Source of the DNA: a virus
Length of the DNA: 64,000 bases
Virus genome (UHGV): UHGV-0176771
Reading direction: 5' to 3' (one strand)
Shown: piece after piece, positions 30 to 29,959 of the stretch
Numbering within the stretch: position 1 is the stretch's first letter
Layout of the letters: every line of letters starts with the position of its first letter
Position numbers and translations under genes: made by a program
The notes under the pieces: model-generated
Seen by the model: the letters and a program-made list of their open reading frames with translations, nothing else
The model's database searches: none
Told to the model about the DNA's origin: nothing

Positions 30-728
30 ATGGGAAAATATTCATTAAAATACAAAGATCTCCCAGGTAAAGATATTTATAAACCATCAAATGTTGGGAA
101 ACTGTTTATTAGTATTGATATGAGAAAGGCAAATTTTTCAGCATTAAAATTTTATGCTAAAAGTATTTTTAGTAACTCTGATACATGGGAAGAATTTATT
201 GAAAGATATACGGAGAATAAACATATCGTAAACAGCAAATATATTAGACAAGTTATTCTTGGAAACTGTAATCCTAAAAGGCAGGTGACTTATGAAAAAT
301 ATTTGATGGGTCTTGTATTAGAAGTTCTTATTGATGAATTAGGATATTCCACTAGTGATATTGCGTTTTACTCTAATGATGAAATTGTTATTGATATGGG
401 AAAATATAAAGGCTGTATAAATAAACAAAAAATATTAGAAATGGCAGTTAACGTACGTTTTAATATTCCATTCAGGATTGAATTGTTTTACTTACACAAA
501 ATTACTGGTACAGATGGATATTGCAAGGAAATTGTAAAAAATATTATTGAAAGAGAATATGAATTTAAATGCTTAAACAATTATACATTACCATTTGTGC
601 TGAGAAAGTTTAATGGAGAAGAAATCACTGAAAACGATAAAGTATTTTATCATGAAGGATTACTATCGAAATTTATGGAAGTACCAAATATGGAGGTAAA
701 ATTGAATGAAAATAAATATTCCGTCTGA
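30..728 (+). CDS. Hypothetical protein; weak resemblance to Thg1/TLP-family 3'-5' nucleotidyltransferases (SIDMRKANFS and YSNDEIVI segments resemble the RLDGxNF and SDE motifs)
   Basis: ORF with ATG at 30 after an in-frame stop at 17-19. Thg1-like motifs seen by eye only; spacing between motifs is longer than in canonical Thg1. Genomic context (immediately upstream of cca) is supportive. Confidence 0.35.
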   Translation: MGKYSLKYKDLPGKDIYKPSNVGKLFISIDMRKANFSALKFYAKSIFSNSDTWEEFIERYTENKHIVNSKYIRQVILGNCNPKRQVTYEKYLMGLVLEVLIDELGYSTSDIAFYSNDEIVIDMGKYKGCINKQKILEMAVNVRFNIPFRIELFYLHKITGTDGYCKEIVKNIIEREYEFKCLNNYTLPFVLRKFNGEEITENDKVFYHEGLLSKFMEVPNMEVKLNENKYSV

Positions 729-2043
729 TGCAAATGAGTTGATTCATACACTTCAAAATCACGGACATTCCGCTTATGTGGTAGGTGGTTGTGTAAGAGA
801 TAGCATCATTGGAAGACAAATTCACGATTGGGATATTTGTACATCTGCAACACCAGACGAAATGCTGGAGATTTTTAAGGATAAAAAAGTAATTGAAACT
901 GGCTTAAAACACGGAACTATAACTGTTGTGGTAAAAGGAGAATCATATGAATTAACAACATTTCGTATTGATGGAAAATATTCTGATAGTCGTAGACCTG
1001 ATTCAGTAATTTTCACAAGTAGTTTAATTGAAGATTTAAAGAGACGTGATTTCACAATCAATGCAATGGCATATAATGATGACGAAGGATTAATTGATCC
1101 ATTTGGGGGATTAGAAGATATTGAATATAAAAAAATTCAATGTGTAGGTTCTGCAAAAGATAGATTTGGAGAAGATGCTTTAAGGATATTGAGAGCAATT
1201 CGTTTTGCTTCTCAACTTGAATTTGTGATGACCTCGGAAACAAGTTATGAAATCAATAAACAATACAAAAATTTGAAGAATATTTCGATTGAGAGAATAA
1301 ATAGTGAGTTTTGCAAAATCGCCGCATCAAGAGATTTCTGTGTAGAAATGGTTTTATATAAAGATGTGTTTGCATTGTTTATACCGGAATTAAAAGATAT
1401 GTTTGAATTCCAACAGAATAACCCATATCACGATTATGATGTTTACAGTCATACAGTACATTCAATTGAACATTGTAAATCCGATAATTTGGTTGTTAGA
1501 TTGGCGGTTTTCTTTCATGATATTGGAAAACCTCATTCATTTCAAGATGGCGAAGACGGTATTAGACACTTTAAAGGACATGGAAAAGTTAGTGCAGACA
1601 TTACAGACAATATTATGAAACGTCTCAAATTTGACAATGAAACAAGAAATAATGTGGTTGAATTGGTGTATTACCATGATGCAACCTTTGAGGTTGGTAA
1701 AAAATATGTGAGAAGATGGATCAATAAGATTGGAGTAGAACAGTTTAGAAGACTATTGGAAGTTAGGAAAGCAGATATTTTAGGACAGAAAGAATCTTAT
1801 GAACAGTATAGGATTGACAATGTCGATAATATTAAACAGATTCTTGAAGAAGTTCTACGAGAAGAAACATGTTTTACGCTTAAAGATTTAGCTGTTAATG
1901 GCAACGATTTAATGAGTATTGGTTATAAAGAAAACAAAGAATTAGGCAATACACTAAATGAATTATTACGATTAGTAATTGATGAAGAATGTCCTAATAA
2001 AAAAGAAAAATTATTAGAAGTAGCAATTGAAAGGAGAATGTAA
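706..2043 (+). CDS. cca: CCA-adding tRNA nucleotidyltransferase (class II Pol-beta head domain GGCVRD plus RRDFTINAMA motif, C-terminal HD domain)
   Basis: Motifs GGxVRD, DxD, RRDFTINA and an HD dyad (FFHDIGKP) are visible. GGAGGT RBS lies 9 nt upstream of ATG 706. Start overlaps the upstream ORF by 23 nt (coupled). Confidence 0.85.
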   Translation: MKINIPSDANELIHTLQNHGHSAYVVGGCVRDSIIGRQIHDWDICTSATPDEMLEIFKDKKVIETGLKHGTITVVVKGESYELTTFRIDGKYSDSRRPDSVIFTSSLIEDLKRRDFTINAMAYNDDEGLIDPFGGLEDIEYKKIQCVGSAKDRFGEDALRILRAIRFASQLEFVMTSETSYEINKQYKNLKNISIERINSEFCKIAASRDFCVEMVLYKDVFALFIPELKDMFEFQQNNPYHDYDVYSHTVHSIEHCKSDNLVVRLAVFFHDIGKPHSFQDGEDGIRHFKGHGKVSADITDNIMKRLKFDNETRNNVVELVYYHDATFEVGKKYVRRWINKIGVEQFRRLLEVRKADILGQKESYEQYRIDNVDNIKQILEEVLREETCFTLKDLAVNGNDLMSIGYKENKELGNTLNELLRLVIDEECPNKKEKLLEVAIERRM

Positions 2044-4565: not shown

Positions 4566-5774
4566 ATGAATTTTGAAATGACAGGAAGACTTAGCATCTC
4601 GAAGGAAACAGAGAAGTTTAAACCATGGGAAGAGAAAACTTATGATTCTGGATGGGTGAAACGACGGTTACTATTTAATGTTACCTGTGGAGATAATAGA
4701 CACATGTTGGCTGTAGATGATGGTTCATTTTCAGACGGACATGGTGATGTGTACACATTTAGTAAAGCAACAATTGATGAATCTGGAAATAAAAAGAAAG
4801 GTGAATCAATGATTATTCCATTTAAAGAGAGACTTACTTCTCCGAAGATTGCAGAGGTAGCAGAATTTAAAAAATATATTTTCGATCTTGAGAAACCAGG
4901 AAGAAGATATGGACTTGAGAAAGCTTCTGAAAGACTTAAAGAAGGAAGAAATTTAACAGATGAAGAACTGAAAGATTTGGGTCTTGAGAATGAATCAGAA
5001 GTTACAGAAGCACTCGAAAAGAGTAAAAAGAAACGCCATGAGTTTATCACAAAATGGGATTATGCAGAGTTTATTAAAAAAGTAATCGATAGTGGAAAGT
5101 ATTCAGATGCAAAATTCTTTATTCGTGGAAATGGAGAGTATTCTTACTCTGAAAACAACGAAAGAGTATATGAATCATATGTTCCTACCCGTATTTATCT
5201 TGCCGCAGACGATGCAGAGGAGAGTTCAACTGCTACCGTAAACATTCTGTTTAATAGTGAGAGTCTTGACACAATGAGTGCAGACGAGAAGAAGAAATAT
5301 TACGTAAATGGATGGATGATGGAATACGACAATAACAGAAGAGGTAATATCCCGGTTCCGGTTACTGTGACAATCCCACTTCCGGGAGACGACGCGGATC
5401 AGAAAGCAAAACGTAGAGTAGAGTCGCTGAAACATAAATTTGCAGTAGACGATGAATCTATCAAAGAGTACGGAGTCGTAGTGAATATGTTGAACGGCGC
5501 ACAGAAAACAGAAATCACAGAGGATATGCTTACAGATGAACAGAGAGATGATCTTGAATGTGGTCTTATTACAATGGATGATATTAGGGCTGAACTTGGA
5601 GGAAGTGTTTATGGTGAACGAATTCGTGAATATGAATTTGTTAAACCTGCAAGAGGATTTACAAAAGGAAGACAGGATACTGTTTACACAGTAGAAGACA
5701 TGGTTATCAGACCAATCGAAGAAACTCTTCCAGAAGGAACCGAAGACTTATTCGATGATGATGATGATCTTTAA
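4566..5774 (+). CDS. Putative ssDNA-binding or recombination-associated protein with acidic C-terminal tail (DLFDDDDDL)
   Basis: Strong RBS AAAGGAGA. Acidic C-terminus is typical of phage SSBs. Sits immediately upstream of the Sak4-like ATPase. Fold not verified. Confidence 0.3.
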   Translation: MNFEMTGRLSISKETEKFKPWEEKTYDSGWVKRRLLFNVTCGDNRHMLAVDDGSFSDGHGDVYTFSKATIDESGNKKKGESMIIPFKERLTSPKIAEVAEFKKYIFDLEKPGRRYGLEKASERLKEGRNLTDEELKDLGLENESEVTEALEKSKKKRHEFITKWDYAEFIKKVIDSGKYSDAKFFIRGNGEYSYSENNERVYESYVPTRIYLAADDAEESSTATVNILFNSESLDTMSADEKKKYYVNGWMMEYDNNRRGNIPVPVTVTIPLPGDDADQKAKRRVESLKHKFAVDDESIKEYGVVVNMLNGAQKTEITEDMLTDEQRDDLECGLITMDDIRAELGGSVYGERIREYEFVKPARGFTKGRQDTVYTVEDMVIRPIEETLPEGTEDLFDDDDDL

Positions 5775-15765: not shown

Positions 15766-15909
15766 ATGAACAAAATTGAAATTATATTTTGGTTTTTGAT
15801 CTTATTATTTTGTAGTTTGTACATCATTACTTATCTAGTTATGTTATCTAATTTTATACAAGCAGAAAGGTTCGAAAAGAAGATTAGGAAATGGAGAAAT
15901 AGAAAATGA
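15766..15909 (+). CDS. Small hydrophobic protein (47 aa), stop overlaps folD start
   Basis: Manually found ORF, below the ORF-track cutoff. Hydrophobic N-terminus and basic C-terminus. Weak RBS. Confidence 0.2.
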   Translation: MNKIEIIFWFLILLFCSLYIITYLVMLSNFIQAERFEKKIRKWRNRK

Positions 15910-16736
15910 GAACTGAAATTGTATCTTGCAAAGACTATGTAGACATTAAAAAGAAGGAACTAAAAGAAGAGATCAAACATCTTGATAAAAAACCAGTCCT
16001 TGCCGTAATTCAGATTGATGATGATAAGGCTTCAAATTCCTATATTAAAGGAAAGCAAAAAGATTGCGATGAAATCGGAATGGAAATGCGTCATGTAAAT
16101 ATTTATTCCAATGCGGCAGAACAGAAGGAAGTCGAATGTATTATAAAAGATATTGCAAATTCTGACGCAGATGGTATTATTATTCAACTTCCAATTCCAG
16201 ATAAATATGATTTGGAAAGATTACAGAATCTGATTCCGCCAGAAAAAGATGTGGATGGATTTAGAAGAGATAGTTGTTTCAAACCATGTACGCCAAAAGG
16301 AATTATCGATTGGATGGAATACAATGACTTTGAATTTAAAGGCAAAGACTGCTGTGTATTAGGCAGAAGTAAAATTGTTGGACTTCCGTTGACTAATATG
16401 TTGATCGAAAAAGGTGCAACTGTTACATGCTGCAATAGTACGACTCCGAGTACATGGTACTACACTAGACACGCAGATTATGTTTTTTCTGCAGTTGGAA
16501 TTCCAAACTATTTTGATTTTTCTGACTTCACAAATTTATGCGAACTTATTGTAGATATTGGAATTAATCGAGATGAGGATGGAAAATTATGTGGTGATGT
16601 AAACAATGTTGGTTTTGAGAATAGTTTAAATGATACATTTGTTACGCCGGTACCTGGCGGGGTAGGATTACTCACAAGATTGGCATTAATGCAAAATGTT
16701 GTAGATGCATATAAAGTTCAGAAAATGAAAGGATGA
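15906..16736 (+). CDS. folD: Bifunctional methylenetetrahydrofolate dehydrogenase / methenyl-THF cyclohydrolase FolD
   Basis: FolD family signature segments (GRSKIVGLPLTNML, GATVTCCNS, PVPGGVG) and length (276 aa). Confidence 0.85.
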   Translation: MRTEIVSCKDYVDIKKKELKEEIKHLDKKPVLAVIQIDDDKASNSYIKGKQKDCDEIGMEMRHVNIYSNAAEQKEVECIIKDIANSDADGIIIQLPIPDKYDLERLQNLIPPEKDVDGFRRDSCFKPCTPKGIIDWMEYNDFEFKGKDCCVLGRSKIVGLPLTNMLIEKGATVTCCNSTTPSTWYYTRHADYVFSAVGIPNYFDFSDFTNLCELIVDIGINRDEDGKLCGDVNNVGFENSLNDTFVTPVPGGVGLLTRLALMQNVVDAYKVQKMKG

Positions 16737-16740
16737 TTGA

Positions 16741-17019
16741 ATGTTTAAATTTTTTAAATGTAATCACGAATATAAAGAAGTCGGCAAATATTACACAATC
16801 GTAATGGATTATGACTGTAAACATATTATGGCTGTTTCCGTATCCGAGTGTGCAGTTTGTGGAGAACGAAAATCTGATGTTGTATATGAAGAAACTATTT
16901 CTTCAAATTCAGAATACGAAGTTGATGACGTGATTCAAACATTAGAAGATAGAGGGTTTTGTCCGAAATTAAACTTCATGTTGGATGATTATGAACGAAG
17001 AAAAAATGCAAAGGAGTGA
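16741..17019 (+). CDS. Hypothetical CxxC protein
   Basis: ORF only. Confidence 0.3.
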   Translation: MFKFFKCNHEYKEVGKYYTIVMDYDCKHIMAVSVSECAVCGERKSDVVYEETISSNSEYEVDDVIQTLEDRGFCPKLNFMLDDYERRKNAKE

Positions 17020-17023
17020 TTTG

Positions 17024-18976
17024 ATGGACAAGGTCAAAAGAATTAAAGAGCTTGTAGAGCAGCTAAACGAATATAGAGATGCTTACTATAATGAAGCAAG
17101 ATCTGATGTTTCTGATGCAGAATACGATAGATTATTCGATGAATTATCGGAGCTTGAAAATGAAACTGGTGTTGTGTATACGAATTCGCCAACACAGTCC
17201 GTTGGGTATGAGGTGAAATCTGAACTAGAAAAGGTTAAACATTCCCATCCAATGCTATCACTTGATAAAACAAAATCTGTAGATGATTTAGTAAAATTTG
17301 CTAGAGATAAAGACTGTATTTTAAGTCTGAAAATGGATGGATTGACATGTCTTCTTACATATGAAAATGGAGAGTTGGTTCAGGCAGAAACTCGTGGAGA
17401 TGGAGAGATTGGTGAATTAATTACTCACAATGCAAGAGTATTTGATAATATTCCGTTATCGATTGATTATAAAGGTCATTTTGAAATCGAAGGAGAAGCT
17501 ATTATTACATATGAAGACTTTGACAAAATCAATAAGTCATTGCCAGACGATAAAAAATATAAGAATCCGAGAAATTTAGCTTCTGGATCTGTACGACAAT
17601 TAGACAGTAAAATTGCAGCACAACGTCATATCAAATTTATTGCGTGGAAAGTGCCAACAGATATTGCGTCAAGTAGTTTTATCAATAGATTGCAGTATGC
17701 TGTAGAATTGGGATTTGACACTGTTCCGCTTTTGCCTATTCGTGGAAATTGCAATGCTGAATTTATTAATATTGTGGTAGAACAATTACGAAAACGTGCA
17801 AATGAAAAGAGCTTTCCGATTGATGGCTTAGTGGCAACGTACAATGATATTACATACGGAGAGTCACTTGGAATGACAGGTCATCATCCCAAACATTCTA
17901 TTGCATTTAAATTCGCAGAGGACTCAGAAGAAACTGTATTGAGAGAAATTGAATGGAGTATGGGCAAGACAGGAACTCTTACGCCAGTAGCAATTTTTGA
18001 TTCAGTTGATTTGGCAGGAACATCAGTGAGTAGAGCTTCATTGCACAACATTAGTATTATGAAAGAATTGAATATTTCTATCGGATCAACAGTAACAGTT
18101 GTAAAGAAGAATGAAATTATTCCACAGATTATTTCCTGCGATGCAAATGCTATGGATGCAGATATTCCTACAACATGTCCTGTATGTGGCGGAGAGACTC
18201 GGATTGTAAAAGAAAACGATTCAGAAGTTTTAATGTGTGTTAATCCTCATTGTAAAGGCAAGCTACTAGGAAGAGTTTCTCATTTTGTTTCCAAGAAAGG
18301 TATGGATATCTCAGGTTTGTCAGAAGAAACAATTAAGAAACTCATTGAACTTGGATGGATTGCAGAGATTACAGACATCTACAATCTTGACCAGTATTAT
18401 GATAGGCTTTCTACGATGTCTGGATTTGGAAAGAAATCAGTAGACAAGTTAAGAAAATCAATTGAAAACAGCAAAACCGTAAGATTGGATAAATTTATTG
18501 CATCATTAAGTATTCCTGGGATTGGAACATCACAGTCAAAAGAGCTGGTTAAAGCTTTTGGTGCATGGGACAAGTTTAGGGATGCCAGCGTTGGTTATTA
18601 TAACTTTACGCAGCTTGACGGTTTTGGAGACGTATTAAATAACAATATTCATTCTTGGTTTGAAGATATGAGTAATATTGCAGATTATCTTGCTTCTCTT
18701 ATGACGTTTGAATCAGAAGACAATTCTAAAACAAGCAATTCTTTGAATGGCAAATCATTTGTTGTTACCGGAAAAGTATATAAATTCAAAAATCGTGATG
18801 AAGTAAAAGAAGCTATTGAAAAATTCGGTGGGAAAGTAACAGGTTCTGTAACAAAATCCACATTTGCTTTAATCAATAACGATATAGAATCCAATAGCAG
18901 TAAAAATAAAAAAGCAAAGGAACTTGGTGTTCAGATTATTAACGAAGAACAGTTAATTGAGATGTTGGGCATGTAG
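17024..18976 (+). CDS. ligA: NAD-dependent DNA ligase LigA
   Basis: KxDG adenylation motif (LKMDGL), four-Cys zinc finger (CPVCG ... CVNPHC), HhH region and C-terminal BRCT. AAGGAG RBS 7 nt before ATG 17024. The longer ORF from 16985 overlaps the upstream gene. Confidence 0.9.
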   Translation: MDKVKRIKELVEQLNEYRDAYYNEARSDVSDAEYDRLFDELSELENETGVVYTNSPTQSVGYEVKSELEKVKHSHPMLSLDKTKSVDDLVKFARDKDCILSLKMDGLTCLLTYENGELVQAETRGDGEIGELITHNARVFDNIPLSIDYKGHFEIEGEAIITYEDFDKINKSLPDDKKYKNPRNLASGSVRQLDSKIAAQRHIKFIAWKVPTDIASSSFINRLQYAVELGFDTVPLLPIRGNCNAEFINIVVEQLRKRANEKSFPIDGLVATYNDITYGESLGMTGHHPKHSIAFKFAEDSEETVLREIEWSMGKTGTLTPVAIFDSVDLAGTSVSRASLHNISIMKELNISIGSTVTVVKKNEIIPQIISCDANAMDADIPTTCPVCGGETRIVKENDSEVLMCVNPHCKGKLLGRVSHFVSKKGMDISGLSEETIKKLIELGWIAEITDIYNLDQYYDRLSTMSGFGKKSVDKLRKSIENSKTVRLDKFIASLSIPGIGTSQSKELVKAFGAWDKFRDASVGYYNFTQLDGFGDVLNNNIHSWFEDMSNIADYLASLMTFESEDNSKTSNSLNGKSFVVTGKVYKFKNRDEVKEAIEKFGGKVTGSVTKSTFALINNDIESNSSKNKKAKELGVQIINEEQLIEMLGM

Positions 18977-19023
18977 TTATTCTGCATACCGAAACAACAT
19001 TATAATAGGAAGGAGTTTTGATT

Positions 19024-19263
19024 ATGGAAATTAGAATTAAATTAAATACTGTAAAAAATGCAATGCTATTTGCAACGGTTTGTGACAATTATGAAGAAGA
19101 CATTGATTATATTTGTGGGAGATATCAGATTGATGCTAAATCAATTCTTGGGATTATGGGAATTGGACTCGAAAGAGAATGCACAGTTGTGTTCCATTCA
19201 GAAGATGAGTATGTAAAAAATAAATTTAAAGAAGATATGAAACTATGGATTGTGGAGGAATAA
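19024..19263 (+). CDS. HPr-family protein lacking the His15 phosphorylation site but retaining the Ser46 region (Crh-like)
   Basis: Alignment by eye to HPr: NAMLFAT corresponds to HARPAT, and KSILGIMGIGL corresponds to KSIMGVMSLGI. AGGAG RBS 8 nt upstream. Confidence 0.5.
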   Translation: MEIRIKLNTVKNAMLFATVCDNYEEDIDYICGRYQIDAKSILGIMGIGLERECTVVFHSEDEYVKNKFKEDMKLWIVEE

Positions 19264-19266
19264 TTT

Positions 19267-19914
19267 ATGAATAAACCCGATTTATCAAAAATGCGCGTAG
19301 AAATCAAATGGGCTGAAGATATGTGGCAGCAGATTAAAGATGCAACAATGACTACGATTGGGAAAGACAAAGGTTCTTATCCTGATCATGATTGGAAGTT
19401 GAAACTTTTAATGGCTGAGCATTCTCCAATTAGACTTGGTTCTGTTATCGTAAAAATTTACGATGCACCTCAATTTGTGCATGGACATTTAGTACGTCAT
19501 TCCAATGGTGCCATCCCATTTGATCCTAGTGGAATCGTTCCGTTTGTATCATCGCTCAGAAGTGACAGAAATGATTATGATGAAGTGCCAAACAGAAATA
19601 CATTACAGAGTGCTACATATTACTTTAATTTTCAGGCATTGATTAATGTATCACGAAGGAGATTGTGCAATTGTGCAAGCTATGAGACAAGGAAGGCGTT
19701 TGGAATGATTAGAGACGAAATTGTTAAATTTGAGCCAGAAGCAGCAAGCAGAATGGTTAAAGAATGTGTGTATAGAAATGGTCTGTGTCCGGAAATGTTT
19801 ACGTGCAAATATAATAAAACGAAAGCATTTGAAGAGGAACTAAAGGAATATATTAAAGGATTTGAAAACCAAATCTGCGATAAAACTAATATTAGAAAAG
19901 GGATGGACGAATAA
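19267..19914 (+). CDS. ThyX-fold (flavin-dependent thymidylate synthase family) protein with divergent substrate-binding motif
   Basis: APQFVHGHLVRH matches ThyX APIFVARQWFRH, and the C-terminal FxxxxNxSRRRL region matches. The RHR/SGRY dUMP-contact residues are replaced by RHS/SGIV. Confidence 0.5.
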   Translation: MNKPDLSKMRVEIKWAEDMWQQIKDATMTTIGKDKGSYPDHDWKLKLLMAEHSPIRLGSVIVKIYDAPQFVHGHLVRHSNGAIPFDPSGIVPFVSSLRSDRNDYDEVPNRNTLQSATYYFNFQALINVSRRRLCNCASYETRKAFGMIRDEIVKFEPEAASRMVKECVYRNGLCPEMFTCKYNKTKAFEEELKEYIKGFENQICDKTNIRKGMDE

Positions 19915-20030
19915 TGTCAGATGCAATTTATTATTGTAAACATGAAGAAAATGATTGTCCTGTAAAAGATACATGTGAAAGATATGTGGATGCAGAACAG
20001 CACCAATTATTGCAGAAGAATCAGAGGTGA
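19914..20030 (+). CDS. Small Cys-rich peptide (38 aa)
   Basis: ATG overlaps the upstream stop (TAATG). Manually found. Confidence 0.2.
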   Translation: MSDAIYYCKHEENDCPVKDTCERYVDAEQHQLLQKNQR

Positions 20031-20040
20031 AATCTGAATA

Positions 20041-20595
20041 ATGGCGATTATTATTTTTGGGAAAACAGCAAGCGGGAAAAGCAGAATTGTGAATGAGCTT
20101 GTGAAAAGAGGATATAAAAAGATTGTAACGACTACAACAAGACCAGCAAGAAAAGGTGAAGTTGACGGAATTGATTACAACTTTATTACCGATGATGAAT
20201 TTAAAGAGCTTATTAATACAAGATATTTTGCAGAGTGGAAGAAATATGACACAGTAGACGGAACGTGGTATTATGGTTCTCCGCTCGATGAAATATCCAG
20301 ATCTGATAACAAATCAATCGTGATTCTAACTCCGGATGGTTATAGAGATATCAAAGATGAGTTAGATGAACACATTTCTATTTATATATACGCAAATAAT
20401 AAGACAATTCGAAACAGATTATCCAAACGTGGAGATAAAAAAGAAGAAGCTGATCGTAGGATTTTACATGACAATAAAGATTTTAAAGGTGCGGAAGAAT
20501 TAGCAGATAGAATCTTTTATAACAACGACGGTAAAAATATCGATGATTTAGTAGATGAAATATTTGAATATTTAAAAACGAGAGAGGGAGAATAA
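20041..20595 (+). CDS. gmk: Guanylate kinase-like nucleoside monophosphate kinase
   Basis: P-loop GKTASGKS and TTTRPARKGEVDGIDYNF (guanylate kinase signature). Confidence 0.75.
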   Translation: MAIIIFGKTASGKSRIVNELVKRGYKKIVTTTTRPARKGEVDGIDYNFITDDEFKELINTRYFAEWKKYDTVDGTWYYGSPLDEISRSDNKSIVILTPDGYRDIKDELDEHISIYIYANNKTIRNRLSKRGDKKEEADRRILHDNKDFKGAEELADRIFYNNDGKNIDDLVDEIFEYLKTREGE

Positions 20596-21098: not shown

Positions 21099-23270
21099 AT
21101 GAAAGTAATTAAGAGAGATTGTACAGAGGCAAGATTTGAAAAGAAGAAAATTTATGATGCTATTATGAAAGCTATGAAAAATGGTAGTGGTATCATTAAG
21201 CCTAAAATTGCAGAATCTATTGCGGATGAAATTTATGAAGAAAATAAGGACAAATCAGATATAAGCATTTCTGAAATTGAATCGTTGGTATATGACAAGT
21301 TGATCACTAAAAAGCAAAGGCTAACGGCAAAAGCATATGAGGGATATAGAAGTATCCGAGAATTTCAAAGAGAAAATATGAATACAACAGATGAACAGAT
21401 CTCAGAGCTTTTGAGTGGATCAAGCGATTATTGGAATAATGAGAATTCAAATAAAAATCCAAAATTGCTCACAACTCAGAGAGATTATATGGCTGGGATT
21501 TTAAGCACGGATATCACAAGAAGGTTTTTACTTCCTCCTGAAATTGTACAAGCACATGATGAAGGGATGATACATTTTCATGATGCAGATTATTACGCAC
21601 AGAATGCAATTTCAAACTGCTGCTTGATTAATCTTGAAGATATGTTGCAGAACGGAACATGTATTAATAAGGTAACGATTGACAAACCACATAGGCTAAT
21701 TACTGCAACCACAATTGCAACACAAATCATAACTGCAGTTACGTCAAGTCAGTATGGGGGCGCTACGATTACATTAACACATTTAGCTCCGTTTGTAAGA
21801 GATAGCTTTAATATCTATATGGAGAAATATAAAAACAGAGGATTGTCTTATCAGCAATGTCTTGAATTTTCGAGAGAAGATATTAAAAAAGAAATTGCAG
21901 ATTCAGTACAGACCTTCAATTATCAGGTAAATTCTATGACGACAACAAATGGACAAAGCCCCTTCCTCAGCGTATTTATGTATATTGGAGAAACTGAAGA
22001 GTATAAAGAAGAACTTGCAATGCTTATTGAAGAATTTTTAAAGCAAAGAATCCAAGGATTAAAAAATGAAGAAGGCGTATATGTTACACAGGCTTTCCCC
22101 AAATTATTATACGTGTTAGAGCCATGTAATATTGACAAAGACGGAAGTTACTTCTATTTGACAAAACTGGCAGCAGAATGTACAGCAAAGAGAATGGTTC
22201 CTGATTATATTTCCGAAAAAATTATGCTTGAAAACAAGATTGATAAAAATGGAAATGGAAATGTTTATGGATGCATGGGCTGCAGAAGCTTTCTTACCAC
22301 ATACATTAACAAGTCTGGTAAACCGCAGTATTATGGACGGTTTAATCAAGGCGTTGTTACATTAAATTTAGTAGATATTGCATTGTCATCTGGAGGAGAC
22401 ATGGATTCGTTTTGGACGATTTTTGATGAAAGAACGGAATTGTGCCACAAAGCATTGCGTCTTAGACATGAAAGACTGGAGGGTACTTTATCAGACGTGG
22501 CACCTGTTTTATATCAAGACGGAGCATTTGCAAGACTTAAAAAAGGAGAGAAGATTGACGAGCTTTTGCATAATGGATATTCAACAATTTCTCTTGGATA
22601 CGCCGGGTTATACGAATGTGTAAAATACATGACAGGCAATTCTCACACTGACAATGGAGTCGGAACATCATTTGGATTGGAAGTTATGAGCAAGCTTAAT
22701 GATAAATGTAGTGAATGGAAAGGAAAAGAAAACATTGATTACAGTTTATATGGCAGTCCTATTGAATCAACAACATATAAATTTGCCAAATGTTTAAAGA
22801 AAAGATTTGGAGTGATTGATGGAATTACAGATAGAGACTATATTACAAATTCATATCATGTTCCTGTATTTGAAGAGATTGATCCGTTTGAGAAATTAGA
22901 GTTAGAGAGTAAATTTCAGAAGTTAAGTCCGGGTGGTGCAATCAGCTATGTAGAATGTGCAGATCTAACTAGAAATACAGATGTAGTAATTGAAATTATG
23001 AAATTTATTTATGAGCATATCATGTATGCGGAGTTAAATACTAAATCTGATTATTGCCAGGAATGTGGTTATGACGGTGAGATTAAAATTATTGATGAAG
23101 ATGGAGAACTTATCTGGGAATGTCCGAATTGTGGTAACAGAAATAAAGATAAGATGAATGTCACTAGAAGAACATGTGGATATATTGGTACAAATTTCTG
23201 GAATCAAGGAAGAACAGAAGAGATCAAAGAAAGATATGTTCATGTAGACGACCATGAAGCGGAGGTATAA
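21099..23270 (+). CDS. nrdD: Anaerobic ribonucleoside-triphosphate reductase NrdD (N-terminal ATP-cone, C-terminal glycyl-radical motif RRTCGYIG)
   Basis: ATP-cone start (VIKRDCTEARFEKKKI), Zn-ribbon CxxC pairs and Gly-radical motif near the C-terminus. 723 aa. Confidence 0.9.
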   Translation: MKVIKRDCTEARFEKKKIYDAIMKAMKNGSGIIKPKIAESIADEIYEENKDKSDISISEIESLVYDKLITKKQRLTAKAYEGYRSIREFQRENMNTTDEQISELLSGSSDYWNNENSNKNPKLLTTQRDYMAGILSTDITRRFLLPPEIVQAHDEGMIHFHDADYYAQNAISNCCLINLEDMLQNGTCINKVTIDKPHRLITATTIATQIITAVTSSQYGGATITLTHLAPFVRDSFNIYMEKYKNRGLSYQQCLEFSREDIKKEIADSVQTFNYQVNSMTTTNGQSPFLSVFMYIGETEEYKEELAMLIEEFLKQRIQGLKNEEGVYVTQAFPKLLYVLEPCNIDKDGSYFYLTKLAAECTAKRMVPDYISEKIMLENKIDKNGNGNVYGCMGCRSFLTTYINKSGKPQYYGRFNQGVVTLNLVDIALSSGGDMDSFWTIFDERTELCHKALRLRHERLEGTLSDVAPVLYQDGAFARLKKGEKIDELLHNGYSTISLGYAGLYECVKYMTGNSHTDNGVGTSFGLEVMSKLNDKCSEWKGKENIDYSLYGSPIESTTYKFAKCLKKRFGVIDGITDRDYITNSYHVPVFEEIDPFEKLELESKFQKLSPGGAISYVECADLTRNTDVVIEIMKFIYEHIMYAELNTKSDYCQECGYDGEIKIIDEDGELIWECPNCGNRNKDKMNVTRRTCGYIGTNFWNQGRTEEIKERYVHVDDHEAEV

Positions 23271-23273
23271 ATA

Positions 23274-23918
23274 GTGAGATATGCATCAATAAGGAAGCTT
23301 GACATTTCCAACGGAGAGGGTATTGGTGCATCTCTCTTCGTTCAAGGATGTCATTTTCATTGCGAGAATTGTTTTAACAAGGATACGTGGGATTTTGATG
23401 GTGGAAAAGAGTGGACAAAAGATGTTAAGAAAAAATTTATGCAATTAACGGAATCGTCATACATAAAAAGGATTAGCATTCTCGGAGGAGAGCCACTCGC
23501 AAATGAAAATCTTAAAGATGTTTTTGACTTGATTACAGACTTACGGTCAAAGTATCCAATAAAAAGAAAAATAGGCACAATATATAGTTGTGGAAACAAT
23601 TATAAACACAATATATTGACAAGAAATTCGGATGAAGTTCGTCTTTTATATCCAGAAAAAACAATCTGGCTGTATTCTGGATTTACATGGGAACAGATTA
23701 TGTATCCGGTTGTTACAGATGACTTCAATCCAGAACGAGATGAACTTTTAAAAATGCGCCGAGAAATTGTAAAACAGTGTGATGTACTTGTAGATGGGCG
23801 CTATGAAGAAGACAAGAGAGATGTTACATATCACTGGGCAGGCAGTACAAACCAGAGAGTGATTGATGTCAAGAAAACATTAGAGCAAGGAAGTGTGGTT
23901 CTATGGGAGAATCAGTAA
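23274..23918 (+). CDS. nrdG: Anaerobic RNR activating protein NrdG (radical SAM, CxxxCxxC)
   Basis: GCHFHCENC motif. GTG start with GGAGGT RBS. Position directly after nrdD. Confidence 0.8.
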   Translation: MRYASIRKLDISNGEGIGASLFVQGCHFHCENCFNKDTWDFDGGKEWTKDVKKKFMQLTESSYIKRISILGGEPLANENLKDVFDLITDLRSKYPIKRKIGTIYSCGNNYKHNILTRNSDEVRLLYPEKTIWLYSGFTWEQIMYPVVTDDFNPERDELLKMRREIVKQCDVLVDGRYEEDKRDVTYHWAGSTNQRVIDVKKTLEQGSVVLWENQ

Positions 23919-26552: not shown

Positions 26553-26897
26553 ATGCGTAAAAAAAATTACAAGGGTCGATGTGAGAAGAGGACAATATCG
26601 AAAAGTAAAGATGTGTGCAGATTCTACGATCCAATTCAATCGAGTTTTGCAGAAATTCTTAACGCAGATCCAGACATTGAGGAAATTCGTTGCAATGTAG
26701 TTTTAGATGGAAAAGACACAGGCGAATATATGACAGATTTTCTTTGTATTAAAACAAACGGAGATATGCTTGTCCGTGAATGTGTCTATCGAAAATTTCT
26801 CACAAAACCTATGACAGTCAAATTCTTAGACATTAGCAAAGATTATTGGTTGAGACACGGTATTGAAGATTGGGGTGTTGTAATTGATGCAGAATAA
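26553..26897 (+). CDS. tnsA: TnsA-like endonuclease (short form; E, D and K catalytic residues recognisable)
   Basis: SSFAEILNADPDIEEIR and TDFLCIK ... ECVYRK align by eye to the Tn7 TnsA catalytic region (E63, D114, Q130/K132). AAGGAG RBS before ATG 26553. The longer ORF from 26496 begins inside the repeats. Confidence 0.5.
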   Translation: MRKKNYKGRCEKRTISKSKDVCRFYDPIQSSFAEILNADPDIEEIRCNVVLDGKDTGEYMTDFLCIKTNGDMLVRECVYRKFLTKPMTVKFLDISKDYWLRHGIEDWGVVIDAE

Positions 26898-28716
26898 TTA
26901 TTTATTAAAAAACAATGACGATATTATTCGAGTTTTGGATGTGCAGCATGGACAGTCTTTAATCATAGATTGCATTAAACTGTCTATGCCAAAGTGGATT
27001 CTTAACAATCAGATAGATTCATTTGTGCCCTTTTCTGAAAATGATTTGTCTGAAATAACAGGCATATACACACAAGATATGGAAGATTTTTCATCTAACA
27101 GTAGAAAATTTATTCATGAACATTTCTCATTAATTGCAAGTATTCTGCCATATATATCTGAACCACAGAAAAGAAATGAAGCCATAAATACTATTTCGGA
27201 AGAGAGAGGCGTCTCAAAAACAACTATAAGAAAATACTTATGTTTGTATTTAGCGTATCAAGATATGTCTGTATTCGCACCAAAAAAGAAAAATCGAAAA
27301 TTAGAACTGTCTACAGATGAAAAGAATATGAGATGGGCGTTAAATAAATTTTACTATACTAGGAAGAAAAATACTCTTAATACAGCTTATACAATGCTTT
27401 TAAAAGAAAAATACTGTGATACAAATGGAAAGTTATTGACACATCATCCATCATTTTATCAGTTCCGGTATTTTTATCGCAAGACAAAAAAACTGCAAAC
27501 CTATTATATCTCAAGAAATGGGATAAAAAATTACCAGAGGAATAACAGACCGTTGATAGGAGATGGTGTACAACAATTTGCTCCAAATGTAGGGATTGGG
27601 ATGTTGGACGCAACAGTATGTGATATATATTTGGTTGATAATTCAGGAAATCTAGTTGGAAGACCAATATTAACCACATGTATAGATGCGTATAGCAGCC
27701 TGTGTTGTGGATATGCATTAACATGGGAAGGTGGAATATATAGTCTAAAAAACTTGATGCTAAATATCATTACAGACAAAGTAGAATTGTGCAAGAAACA
27801 TGGAATTATTATAAGTAAGCAAGAATGGAATATTGATCAGGTTCCCGGAGTGATGATTACAGATAAGGGTAGCGAATATAAATCAGAAGTATTTGAACAA
27901 TTAACTGAACTTGGGATTACAATAACAAATTTGCCACCATATAGACCAGAATTAAAAGGTTCTGTAGAGAAGTTTTTTGATTTAGTACAAGGATACTACA
28001 AAGAATATTTAAAAGGTAAAGGAGTAGTTAATCCAGACTTTCAAGAGCGTGGATGTCATGACTATAGAAAAGACGCCTGCCTGACATTAGAAGACTTTGA
28101 AAAGATAATATTGCGTTGTATATTGTATTATAATTCACAACGCATTTTAAAGAATTTTCCATACACAGAAGATATGATAAAAAATAATATTCAACCATAT
28201 GCAAATACAATATTTGAATATGGCAAAAAACGTATCGGAGCAAACTTAATATCTGTAAGTTCTAAAAATATAATTTATTCAATGCTTCCGAGAATAACAG
28301 GGAAATTTTCGCGTCGTGGTTTGATTGTAAATAAAATGAGATATCACTGTGATGGATATACGGAAGAATATTTAAACGGCGATTATGTAAAAGTGGCATA
28401 TGATTCAAATGACGTTACCACAGTATGGGCTATTTTGAACGGTGAATATGTTCCGTTTAATATTATTGAAAATAGGTTCAATGGAATGGATATTACAGAA
28501 ACAGATGCATTGCTGCAAGAACAAAAAAGGTTGGTGGCAAAAGAAGAATATAATAACATGCAGTCGAAAATTGATTTGGCTAAATATATAGAGACGATTG
28601 CTAATAATGTATGTCGAAAGCAAGATACAAAAATTAAAAATGTTAAACAAACAAGGAAAAGAGAAACGTATCGCACACACATTGACCATATAAACGGAGG
28701 AGTCGATTATGAGTAA
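26884..28716 (+). CDS. tnsB: TnsB-like DDE transposase (Mu/Tn7 family)
   Basis: DDE triad context (LDATVCD, MITDKGSEY, KGSVEKFF). N-terminal HTH-like region. 610 aa. Confidence 0.85.
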   Translation: MMQNNYLLKNNDDIIRVLDVQHGQSLIIDCIKLSMPKWILNNQIDSFVPFSENDLSEITGIYTQDMEDFSSNSRKFIHEHFSLIASILPYISEPQKRNEAINTISEERGVSKTTIRKYLCLYLAYQDMSVFAPKKKNRKLELSTDEKNMRWALNKFYYTRKKNTLNTAYTMLLKEKYCDTNGKLLTHHPSFYQFRYFYRKTKKLQTYYISRNGIKNYQRNNRPLIGDGVQQFAPNVGIGMLDATVCDIYLVDNSGNLVGRPILTTCIDAYSSLCCGYALTWEGGIYSLKNLMLNIITDKVELCKKHGIIISKQEWNIDQVPGVMITDKGSEYKSEVFEQLTELGITITNLPPYRPELKGSVEKFFDLVQGYYKEYLKGKGVVNPDFQERGCHDYRKDACLTLEDFEKIILRCILYYNSQRILKNFPYTEDMIKNNIQPYANTIFEYGKKRIGANLISVSSKNIIYSMLPRITGKFSRRGLIVNKMRYHCDGYTEEYLNGDYVKVAYDSNDVTTVWAILNGEYVPFNIIENRFNGMDITETDALLQEQKRLVAKEEYNNMQSKIDLAKYIETIANNVCRKQDTKIKNVKQTRKRETYRTHIDHINGGVDYE

Positions 28717-29959
28717 AACTACGGAATCAATTTATAATTTACCACCTATTTTATCAGGAGAACGACTGATTTCGTCTTTGACTGTATTGCCAGAATATGA
28801 GCCATCAATTATTCATAAAAGCGAAACAGAACGTTTAATGGCGCTGTCAGATATATATAGAATATATATACCATCAAAAATGTCCCAAGAGATATATAGC
28901 AAATTGTATCTTTCATTAATGCGTTCATTGCAGAAGAAAAGGACAGATCCATTTGTTATGCAACAGCAACAAAACAATTTTAGAATGATTCAAAAGAAGT
29001 TTTATAATGGTGGAATTATAGGTGGGTCAGATTCTTTTTCTATTATTGGTAATTCTGGAATAGGGAAAAGTGCATCTATATTTAGAGCAATTGATTTAAT
29101 AACAGACAGTACAGTCATAGAGTTTGAAAATCCATATGCAAAGGTAATACCGTCTCTGGTGGTGCAATGCCCCTTTGACTCTTCTGTAAAAGGACTTCTA
29201 TTGGAAATATTAAGAAAAGCTGATGAACTTCTTGGCTCAAAATACTATGAAAATGCGATCAAAATAAAGGCTACAACAGATACATTAATAGGTTGTGTCA
29301 GTCAAATTGCCTTGAACAATATCGGATTGTTAATTGTCGATGAAATACAAAATATATGTAATTCAAAAAATGGCAAAACTTTAGTTGGTAGTATAACGCA
29401 ACTGGTCAATAATTCCGGTATAAGTATTTGCTTTGTAGGAACTCCGGAATGTAAAAATTTTTTTGACAAAGCAATGCATCTTGCAAGGAGAACAATGGGG
29501 TTAGAATATACGTCTCTTGACTTTGATGTTGAATTTACCATGTTTTGTAAAATTATTTTTCAGTATCAGTACATGGAAGAAAGAATTGAAATTACTGATA
29601 AGATTATTAAATGGCTATACGACCACTCGTCTGGGAATGTTTCTATTGTTATAGCGCTTCTACATGACGCACAGGAGATAGGCATTCTGTCCGGACATAA
29701 ATCATTAAGTATTGATCTTTTTGAAATAGCATATAAACAAAGAATGTCTGTTTTACACGATTATATAAATATTCCAGACAAACAAAAATTAAAGCTGTGC
29801 AGTAAAAAAGATAAGCAAATTATCGAACGAGATAGTACAAAAGAAATAAACGATAATTTAAAAATATCTGATATTGTACAGGAATCGAAACAAAACAATA
29901 TTAATATTGTTTTATTGCTGAAAAAATACAATTTAATCGCCGAGGAGATATCGCTATGA
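28709..29959 (+). CDS. tnsC: TnsC-like AAA+ ATPase
   Basis: Walker A GNSGIGKS and Walker B LLIVDEIQ. Position after tnsB. Confidence 0.8.
   Translation: MSKTTESIYNLPPILSGERLISSLTVLPEYEPSIIHKSETERLMALSDIYRIYIPSKMSQEIYSKLYLSLMRSLQKKRTDPFVMQQQQNNFRMIQKKFYNGGIIGGSDSFSIIGNSGIGKSASIFRAIDLITDSTVIEFENPYAKVIPSLVVQCPFDSSVKGLLLEILRKADELLGSKYYENAIKIKATTDTLIGCVSQIALNNIGLLIVDEIQNICNSKNGKTLVGSITQLVNNSGISICFVGTPECKNFFDKAMHLARRTMGLEYTSLDFDVEFTMFCKIIFQYQYMEERIEITDKIIKWLYDHSSGNVSIVIALLHDAQEIGILSGHKSLSIDLFEIAYKQRMSVLHDYINIPDKQKLKLCSKKDKQIIERDSTKEINDNLKISDIVQESKQNNINIVLLLKKYNLIAEEISL

Follow-up and report, generated by a model that had tools for sequence, protein, structure and literature searches.

What use could a phage of gut bacteria have for a protein built like the phosphocarrier HPr, when the histidine that takes up the phosphate is missing? 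HPr and Crh form a central switch of carbon-source control in Firmicutes; to our knowledge, the equivalent regulation in the dominant gut Clostridia has been little studied. The gene that raises the question lies in a stretch of 64,000 nucleotides from a viral genome (UHGV-0176771), which was analysed as a whole and is called the window below. A sequence-only reading of the gene had described it as a phage-encoded, Crh-like paralogue of HPr.

The gene encodes a 79-aa protein, MEIRIKLNTVKNAMLFATVCDNYEEDIDYICGRYQIDAKSILGIMGIGLERECTVVFHSEDEYVKNKFKEDMKLWIVEE, and begins with the ATG at 19024. The same protein, identical throughout, is found in the public databases as EDN79505.1 from Mediterraneibacter (Ruminococcus) gnavus ATCC 29149, where it is named ‘HPr family phosphocarrier protein’. 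An alternative TTG start at 19018 was rejected; the TTG would crowd the ribosome-binding site, leaving insufficient spacing, and EDN79505.1 likewise begins at the ATG. The gene sits within a long array of genes on the same strand, 47 nt from the end of its upstream neighbour, the DNA ligase gene, and 3 nt from its downstream neighbour. Scans for promoters and terminators around it gave nothing above chance; thus, it is probably co-transcribed with its neighbours, and a separate transcription unit cannot be claimed. There is no second HPr-like open reading frame (ORF) in the window. A PHROGs search with the 79-aa protein assigned no family, and PADLOC gave no link to defence for the gene. Coordinates of the gene, its motifs and the other features discussed below are collected in Table 1.

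Table 1. Locations of the HPr-like gene, its motifs, its neighbours and related features, in the window unless another locus is named
Feature	Location	Strand	Remarks
CCA-adding tRNA nucleotidyltransferase	706-2043	+	phrog_2244, E 1e-70
FolD (methylene-tetrahydrofolate dehydrogenase/cyclohydrolase)	15906..16736	+	Pfam THF_DHG_CYH, THF_DHG_CYH_C
NAD-dependent DNA ligase (LigA)	16985..18976	+	Pfam DNA_ligase_aden, OB, BRCT
Ribosome-binding site AGGAAGGAG	19007..19015	+	8 nt 5' of the ATG; read from the sequence
Coding sequence, 79-aa histidine-less HPr-like protein	19024..19263	+	TAA stop (19261-19263) included
N8-T9-V10 codons	19045..19053	+	shortened strand-1/helix-1 loop replacing the G-I-H15 active centre; from alignment and model
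G32-R33-Y34 codons	19117..19125	+	family-specific turn motif; G 113, R 109, Y 113 of 144 representatives
D37-A-K-S40-I-L-G43 codons	19132..19152	+	Ser46-equivalent motif at the start of helix 2; S40 codon 19141-19143
215-aa weakly ThyX-like protein	19267..19914	+	Pfam Thy1 E 9.7e-4, 19.4 bits vs cut-off 24.8
Cys-rich ORF	19914-20030	+	
Guanylate-kinase-like nucleotide kinase	20041..20595	+	Pfam Guanylate_kin E 4e-19
Anaerobic ribonucleotide reductase NrdD and activase NrdG	21099..23918	+	Pfam NRDD E 1e-179; Fer4_12, Radical_SAM
nrdD alone	21099-23270		723 aa, intact
Mu-type pair	26884-29959	+	transposase, phrog_310, E 7e-31; DNA transposition protein, phrog_296, E 1e-9
Tape-measure-like protein, 2306 aa	53979-60899	-	C-terminal part matches Ig-domain and major-tail-protein families
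Tandem second HPr-like copy, L131 (IMG/VR)	5222-5476		
Tandem second HPr-like copy, L135 (IMG/VR)	5232-5480		
Tandem second HPr-like copy, L097 (IMG/VR)	5216-5476		
Tandem second HPr-like copy, L136 (IMG/VR)	5216-5479		
Cys-rich ORF, L137	4799-5023		
Cys-rich ORF, L138	4778-5017		
Cys-rich ORF, L003	6891-7091		
nrdD, L003	8144-11157		
nrdD, L005	8144-11197		
Chromosomal HPr-like gene, L167-L171	8001-8237		

That the gene is carried by a phage, as had been proposed, is borne out by the rest of the window, which contains the long tape-measure gene, genes for several tail proteins and a set of replication genes (primase, DnaB-type helicase, RecJ-like nuclease, PolC/DnaE-type polymerase). The same element is catalogued in IMG/VR as an 87.5-kb entry. 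It is also embedded in a 3.54-Mb R. gnavus contig and is thus a prophage. The exact 79-aa protein was found in 442 blocks of public assemblies, mostly metagenomes. An inducible prophage of ATCC 29149 described in the GuFi preprint was considered as the same element; the one genome size stated for its clade is 46 kb, so that it is probably a different one.

The similarity to HPr is real and goes beyond chance. The sequence-only reading had aligned the protein with HPr along its length, and this stands up: the protein passes the Pfam model PF00381 (PTS-HPr) with 26.5 bits against a gathering cut-off of 23 (E 6.7e-6), and the top single-sequence matches in the PDB found with HMMER are an HPr (7ff5) and a Crh (1zvv). 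A family profile matches Firmicute HPr with an E value of 1e-10, Crh with 6e-10 and enterobacterial HPr, from Escherichia coli, with only 1e-4. The AlphaFold2 model of the protein (pLDDT 90.4, pTM 0.79) has the beta-alpha-beta-beta-alpha-beta-alpha topology in the order found in HPr, and when it was compared with the PDB using Foldseek, the first 40 matches were all HPr, Crh or NPr, with TM scores of about 0.65-0.72 for those ranked at the top. Every NCBIfam model of HPr or Crh is failed by the protein, including TIGR01003 (23.9 bits against a cut-off of 47.9), the HPr equivalogs (18.3 against 110) and NF010354/PRK13782, which we take to be the Crh model (17.6 against 123).

Which parts of HPr have been kept and which lost can be read from the alignments and the model together. 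His15 is absent, as the sequence-only reading had noted. The HMMER alignment places a gap of one residue at position 15, the MAFFT alignment a gap of three (G13-I14-H15), and in the model just four residues separate strand 1 (residues 2-5) from helix 1 (residues 10-21), so that the loop is shortened and holds no histidine. The earlier pairing of HARPAT in HPr with NAMLFAT in the phage protein was right about the missing histidine but slightly off in register, the stretch actually aligned being -VKNAM. In the MAFFT alignment of the family, the G13-I14-H15 columns are deleted in all 144 representatives, and the same deletion is present in 77 of 77 further sequences (58 chromosomal and 19 viral). 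His15 is the sole phosphate acceptor from Enzyme I, and a protein that lacks it cannot serve as a phosphocarrier; judged from the sequence, PTS phosphotransfer by the phage protein is therefore excluded. The Arg17 column holds Lys in the phage protein and is not conserved in the family (Glu in 41, Asp in 39, Asn in 27 and Lys in 11 of the 144).

The region around Ser46 has fared differently, and here too the sequence-only reading holds: the segment reads D37-A-K-S40-I-L-G43-I-M, with S40 as the equivalent of Ser46. This serine is invariant in the 144 representatives and in the 77 further sequences (58 chromosomal, 9 from the phage clade, 4 tandem paralogues and 6 other viral), and the motif residues around it are nearly so (D in 133, K in 137 and G in 137 of the 144). 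The G-R-Y turn occurs in 58 of 58 chromosomal copies and is absent in HPr and Crh, and the column equivalent to His64 is retained, as His58 in the phage protein. CcpA contacts HPr through I47, M48 and M51 of helix 2 and phospho-Ser46 (PMC10287919); the equivalents of the three hydrophobic residues are retained in the family as I/L, M/L and L/M/F.

A protein of HPr fold with no phosphorylatable His15 and an intact K-S-I-M/L-G segment around Ser46 invites comparison with Crh of Bacillus subtilis and other Bacillales, which shares all of these features and, with them, the limitation to a regulatory, non-transport role. The resemblance does not go further. Crh has 85 aa and the full G-L-Q-A-R-P loop, with Gln15 in place of the histidine and Arg17 retained, whereas the phage protein has 79 aa, a shortened loop, Lys at the Arg17 column and the additional G-R-Y and His58 motifs. 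By the family profile, ordinary Firmicute HPr is at least as close as Crh. In a neighbour-joining tree, which is based on a short alignment and carries no support values, the phage protein is placed among short histidine-less proteins, and the HPr and Crh of B. subtilis and the HPr of E. coli fall outside this group. Host class and gene context differ as well: the host is M. gnavus, a member of the Lachnospiraceae, a lineage with its own chromosomal family of short histidine-less proteins, and the relatives are found in Clostridia and their phages. Thus, the ‘Crh pattern of Bacillus-type hosts’ seen in the sequence-only reading is not supported, and by its sequence the phage protein is excluded from being a Crh. 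Canonical HPr (PtsH) of Firmicutes shares the fold, the Pfam family, the sequence type of helix 2 and the best profile matches, and differs in having His15 and in the TIGR01003 cut-off, below which the phage protein falls. Neither ptsI nor any other PTS gene lies near the phage gene, whose neighbours are those for LigA, the ThyX-like protein, the kinase, NrdDG and FolD. A paper on a ‘Crh’ of T. saccharolyticum relies on BLAST matches to Crh of B. subtilis, and the short family is not mentioned in it.

The features that separate the protein from Crh are those by which, on its sequence, it belongs to a large unnamed family of histidine-less HPr-like proteins of 75-85 aa. The hallmarks of this family are the loop deletion, the G-R-Y turn, two aspartates in strand 2, the motif D-A-K-S-[IL]-[ML]-G and a histidine in strand 4; the phage protein has the length, the loop deletion, G32-R-Y34, D37-A-K-S-I-L-G43 and H58, and scores 114.8 bits on the family HMM, whose training set included it. 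An exhaustive search with a profile built from the phage protein and its close relatives returned 1,931 representative clusters at E<=1e-3, most of them 75-85 aa in length, and 110 at E<=1e-10. Members were confirmed in at least 594 species (one genome per species, with the pattern G-R-Y-x-[IV]-[DN]-A-K-S-[IL]) in a scan that used a 17-sequence alignment. The best 80 of these loci are almost all from Clostridia, among them Lachnospiraceae, Oscillospiraceae, Ruminococcus, Roseburia, Dorea, Hungatella, Anaerotruncus and Caldanaerobacter. A word-based search with a Dorea member gave at least 8,000 clusters at 90% identity. A copy on the R. gnavus chromosome was not among the cluster listings, which returned Faecalicatena, Blautia, Bariatricus and similar genera, nor among the contigs looked up, which were metagenome contigs; the ‘HPr family’ gene to which a survey of R. 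gnavus refers has other, non-prophage surroundings.

On the chromosomes of Clostridia, the gene occupies a core-genome, housekeeping position. It is a single gene between thiI and mtaB, flanked by the block grpE-dnaK-dnaJ-prmA-rsmE-nifS-thiI and, past its other end, by mtaB-ireB-ruvX-DUF1292-RNase J (L167-L171 and L007-L086), and it stands alone on the strand opposite to all of these flanking genes; in 46 of 58 loci it is divergent from the gene for the MtaB-type radical-SAM methylthiotransferase. No PTS, hprK or ccpA genes were found near it at the loci examined. The chromosomal copies (for example AAM23419.1 of Caldanaerobacter and P0168/P0309 of Dorea/Blautia) share with the phage protein the length, the loop deletion, G-R-Y, D-A-K-S-I-M/L-G and His64, and carry no annotation beyond ‘HPr family phosphocarrier protein’ or ‘HPr domain-containing protein’. 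Their conservation is very high: I16, V19, K20, F22, S37-G-R-Y and D43-A-K-S-I-M-G-I-F-S-L-D-L occur in 55-58 of 58 copies from different families, and the near-invariance of the last of these stretches implies a constrained interaction surface. The helix-2 stretch DAKSIMGIFSLDL is itself nearly invariant across families.

The copy in the window lies elsewhere, in a nucleotide-metabolism module of the prophage, and belongs, in the tree, to a separate clade of large phages. Relatives were found on 223 IMG/VR contigs, mostly of 90-225 kb, which form about a dozen sequence lineages with 35-56% identity, and also in isolates of Enterocloster bolteae phages, PMBT24 and CB457P1/CB473P1-3. In the tree, most of the copies from large phages form a clade of their own, while those of L146/L158, L148/L149 and L164 fall among the chromosomal sequences and, from their placement, look like separate captures. 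Judging by the sequences, the large-phage clade is old and diversified rather than the result of a recent capture. It retains D43-G49, G-R-Y and His64, and it departs from the host consensus at positions 19-20 of helix 1 and at 51, 53-54, 58 and 80: where the chromosomal copies have the near-invariant V19-K20 and F51-S-L-D54, the phage copies have Ala19, a variable position 20, L/M51 and G/S/T54, together with Trp80. Values of dN/dS are 0.02-0.18 within two phage lineages, indicating strong purifying selection on the phage gene, and 0.06-0.18 for the gene in the window compared with its close phage relatives.

In four large-phage lineages, the first gene is followed directly at its 3' end by another histidine-less HPr-like gene that is more divergent, and none of the four has lost the equivalent of Ser46; in these tandem copies the motif region reads, for example, ‘...GRQVINAKSLLGMYSLDW...’ and ‘...KRYRINGRSFIGMCSIDL...’. 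In some metagenome assemblies, the gene is found in versions that switch to the +1 frame (P0005, P0006, P0007, P0009 and P0011; the corresponding ORF in the window is 19058-19216), which are either assembly errors or occasional pseudogenes. Similar phage proteins are also present in databases: at least two BFVD entries, A0A8S5S213 and A0A8S5PSI8, HPr-domain proteins of uncultivated gut phages, match at TM 0.80-0.83, A0A8S5S9E0 more weakly at TM 0.77 (E 8e-2), and the ‘phosphocarrier protein’ WDQ45469.1 of PMBT24, a small phage protein of HPr fold, is 37% identical to the protein in the window. All of these are automatic annotations, and the paper on PMBT24 does not mention the gene for WDQ45469.1. 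Literature searches found no publication on the short histidine-less family or on HPr-like proteins of phages.

The gene order in the window is FolD, a 92-aa ORF, LigA, the HPr-like gene, the 215-aa protein, a small ORF, the guanylate-kinase-like gene, NrdD and NrdG, with a dUTPase farther along. LigA is again the neighbour in L003-L006 and L111, as identified by homology and Pfam, and in L131 as read from its sequence. The 215-aa protein downstream is a doubtful ThyX, matching the genuine ThyX of L111 in BLASTP over 63 aa only (E 1e-4, 30% identity). At the same position, L131 and L135 have an unrelated protein of 229-235 aa with zero Pfam matches. In other lineages, the genes directly adjoining the HPr-like gene encode the following: LigA and the genuine ThyX in L111; dUTPase, ThyA and DHFR in L137/L138; FolD, a nucleoside-deoxyribosyltransferase-like protein and kinases in L097/L136; and nucleotide kinases and an NT5C-type deoxynucleotidase in L146/L158. 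Linkage to thymidylate and dNTP supply is thus recurrent and takes in nearly all of the phage copies, although shared module ancestry could explain part of it, and there are exceptions in PMBT24 (where the neighbours are a SleB-like hydrolase, XerD and RecA), L149 and L164.

For what the protein does in the infected cell, we lean tentatively, at somewhat less than an even chance, towards a functional phage-borne regulator of HPr fold that is recognised by the HPr kinase/phosphorylase (HprK/P) of the host and acts as a mimic or competitor of HPr; its partner, its phosphorylation and its physiological effect are what we infer. The most conserved motif is the Ser46 segment of helix 2, in HPr and Crh the docking surface for HprK/P and CcpA, which suggests a small regulatory adaptor acting through that face at the start of the helix. 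The Ser46 surface of HPr also enters the active site of HprK/P, and the host enzyme would probably recognise the phage protein and perhaps phosphorylate Ser40. The protein could then mimic or compete with host HPr and with the chromosomal short HPr-like protein, the latter as seen in related Clostridia, and, being expressed within an array for replication and dNTP synthesis, might couple or uncouple the signalling of the host's carbon and energy state during phage DNA synthesis. That helix 1 has diverged between the clades of phages and hosts would, speculatively, suit a mimic that is only partial, with one partner retained and another given up. HPr proteins of Firmicutes are substrates of HprK/P and those of enterobacteria are not, and the preference of the family profile for Firmicute HPr may be counted in favour of this regulator. 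Other observations count against it. Linked genes for a kinase, CcpA or PTS components are missing in phages and chromosomes alike. Ser46 is conserved even in the HPr of bacteria without HprK/P, where it caps helix 2, so that its invariance alone is no proof of phosphorylation. The Arg17 position and the N-terminal part of helix 1, both within the partner-binding surface of HPr, are not HPr-like and differ between the phage and chromosomal clades, and that the linkage to thymidylate and dNTP genes persists may be a hint of some other partner.

That linkage is the starting point for another explanation, the main rival though unlikely in our estimate, in which the HPr fold would serve, without HprK/P, as a binding module of a regulator or accessory subunit for a thymidylate/dNTP enzyme or an enzyme that modifies nucleic acids. 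Direct binding of metabolic enzymes is known for both HPr and Crh (GapA, MgsA and glycogen phosphorylase), and 9s8k is among the Foldseek matches of the phage protein. Diverged phages place the gene beside LigA, FolD, ThyX or ThyA with DHFR, dUTPase, the deoxynucleotidase or nucleotide kinases, the linkage holding even where the type of neighbouring enzyme differs, and the chromosomal copies lie between genes for tRNA and rRNA modification (thiI, nifS and rsmE; mtaB). However, related large phages may have inherited the module from a common ancestor, which alone could account for the synteny; none of the neighbours is constant and there are exceptions to the linkage, and the chromosomal gene is transcribed against its neighbours and thus stands outside their operons. 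The role proposed in the sequence-only reading, that of a Crh-type protein which, once HprK/P has phosphorylated its Ser46, joins CcpA as co-repressor at cre sites and locks the host in or out of catabolite repression, we consider improbable. It would account for the missing histidine and for the retention of the Ser46 motif with the hydrophobic patch equivalent to I47, M48 and M51, the same residues that CcpA uses (PMC10287919), and Crh chains are among the best sequence and fold matches in the PDB. Yet the NCBIfam models of Crh and HPr are failed by a wide margin, the active-centre loop is shortened rather than substituted, the family stands no nearer to Crh than to HPr, and the host is of the Clostridium class, with chromosomal homologues beside housekeeping and not carbon-metabolism genes. 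Arg17 of HPr and Crh makes contacts that switch CcpA; its replacement, by Lys here and by acidic residues or Asn in most of the family, argues against a straightforward role as CcpA co-repressor. Titration of HprK/P, the other idea of the sequence-only reading, might still play a part. Finally, a captured host ptsH that has lost its active site and is decaying without function would explain the absence of the histidine and the frameshifted versions in some metagenome assemblies. The low dN/dS values in two lineages, the confident model, an architecture found in thousands of clusters, the age and diversity of the phage clade and the recurrence of the exact protein in public assemblies leave this explanation hardly any probability, and we regard it as ruled out by the selection and conservation data.

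The phage protein is a member of a distinct, histidine-less branch of the HPr superfamily, for which the database label ‘HPr family’ already exists and no study was found. What comes to light with it is a histidine-less relative of HPr that is nearly universal and very strongly conserved in the dominant gut Clostridia, and of which many large gut phages, including a prophage widespread in public assemblies, retain their own version under strong selection. If the regulator that we favour does feed into HprK/P signalling, it would clearly exemplify the manipulation of host nutrient sensing by a phage, and a 79-aa protein with one critical serine would offer a handle on the role of the host family. 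A bolder proposal, which we put forward as rather doubtful, is that the short family is a new signalling node of Clostridia, possibly a second output from HprK/P or from a different kinase, directed at nucleic-acid or nucleotide metabolism and not at CcpA, and that large gut phages have long carried, diversified and duplicated their own version to control this node during DNA synthesis. The importance of the phage gene would rise if the host family proves to be such a node.

Several minor features of the neighbourhood and of the prophage were also recorded. Diverged lineages have, close to the HPr-like gene, a small Cys-rich ORF with the pattern YYC-x6-7-C-x4-5-C-[EK]-RY, which in the window is two genes 3' of the HPr-like gene and in L137/L138 immediately 5' of it; the copy in the window has 38 aa, compared with 66 aa in close relatives. 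In close relatives of the element (L003 and L005), nrdD, which is intact here, is in one case split by an HNH/NUMOD1 endonuclease ORF and in another extended to 1017 aa, which suggests a mobile intron or intein in some copies. The window includes a gene for a CCA-adding enzyme, although ARAGORN found no tRNA genes in its 64 kb. A Mu-type pair of transposition genes is present together with the element's own PolC/DnaE-type polymerase, helicase and primase, and may represent a nested mobile element or a feature of a transposable phage.
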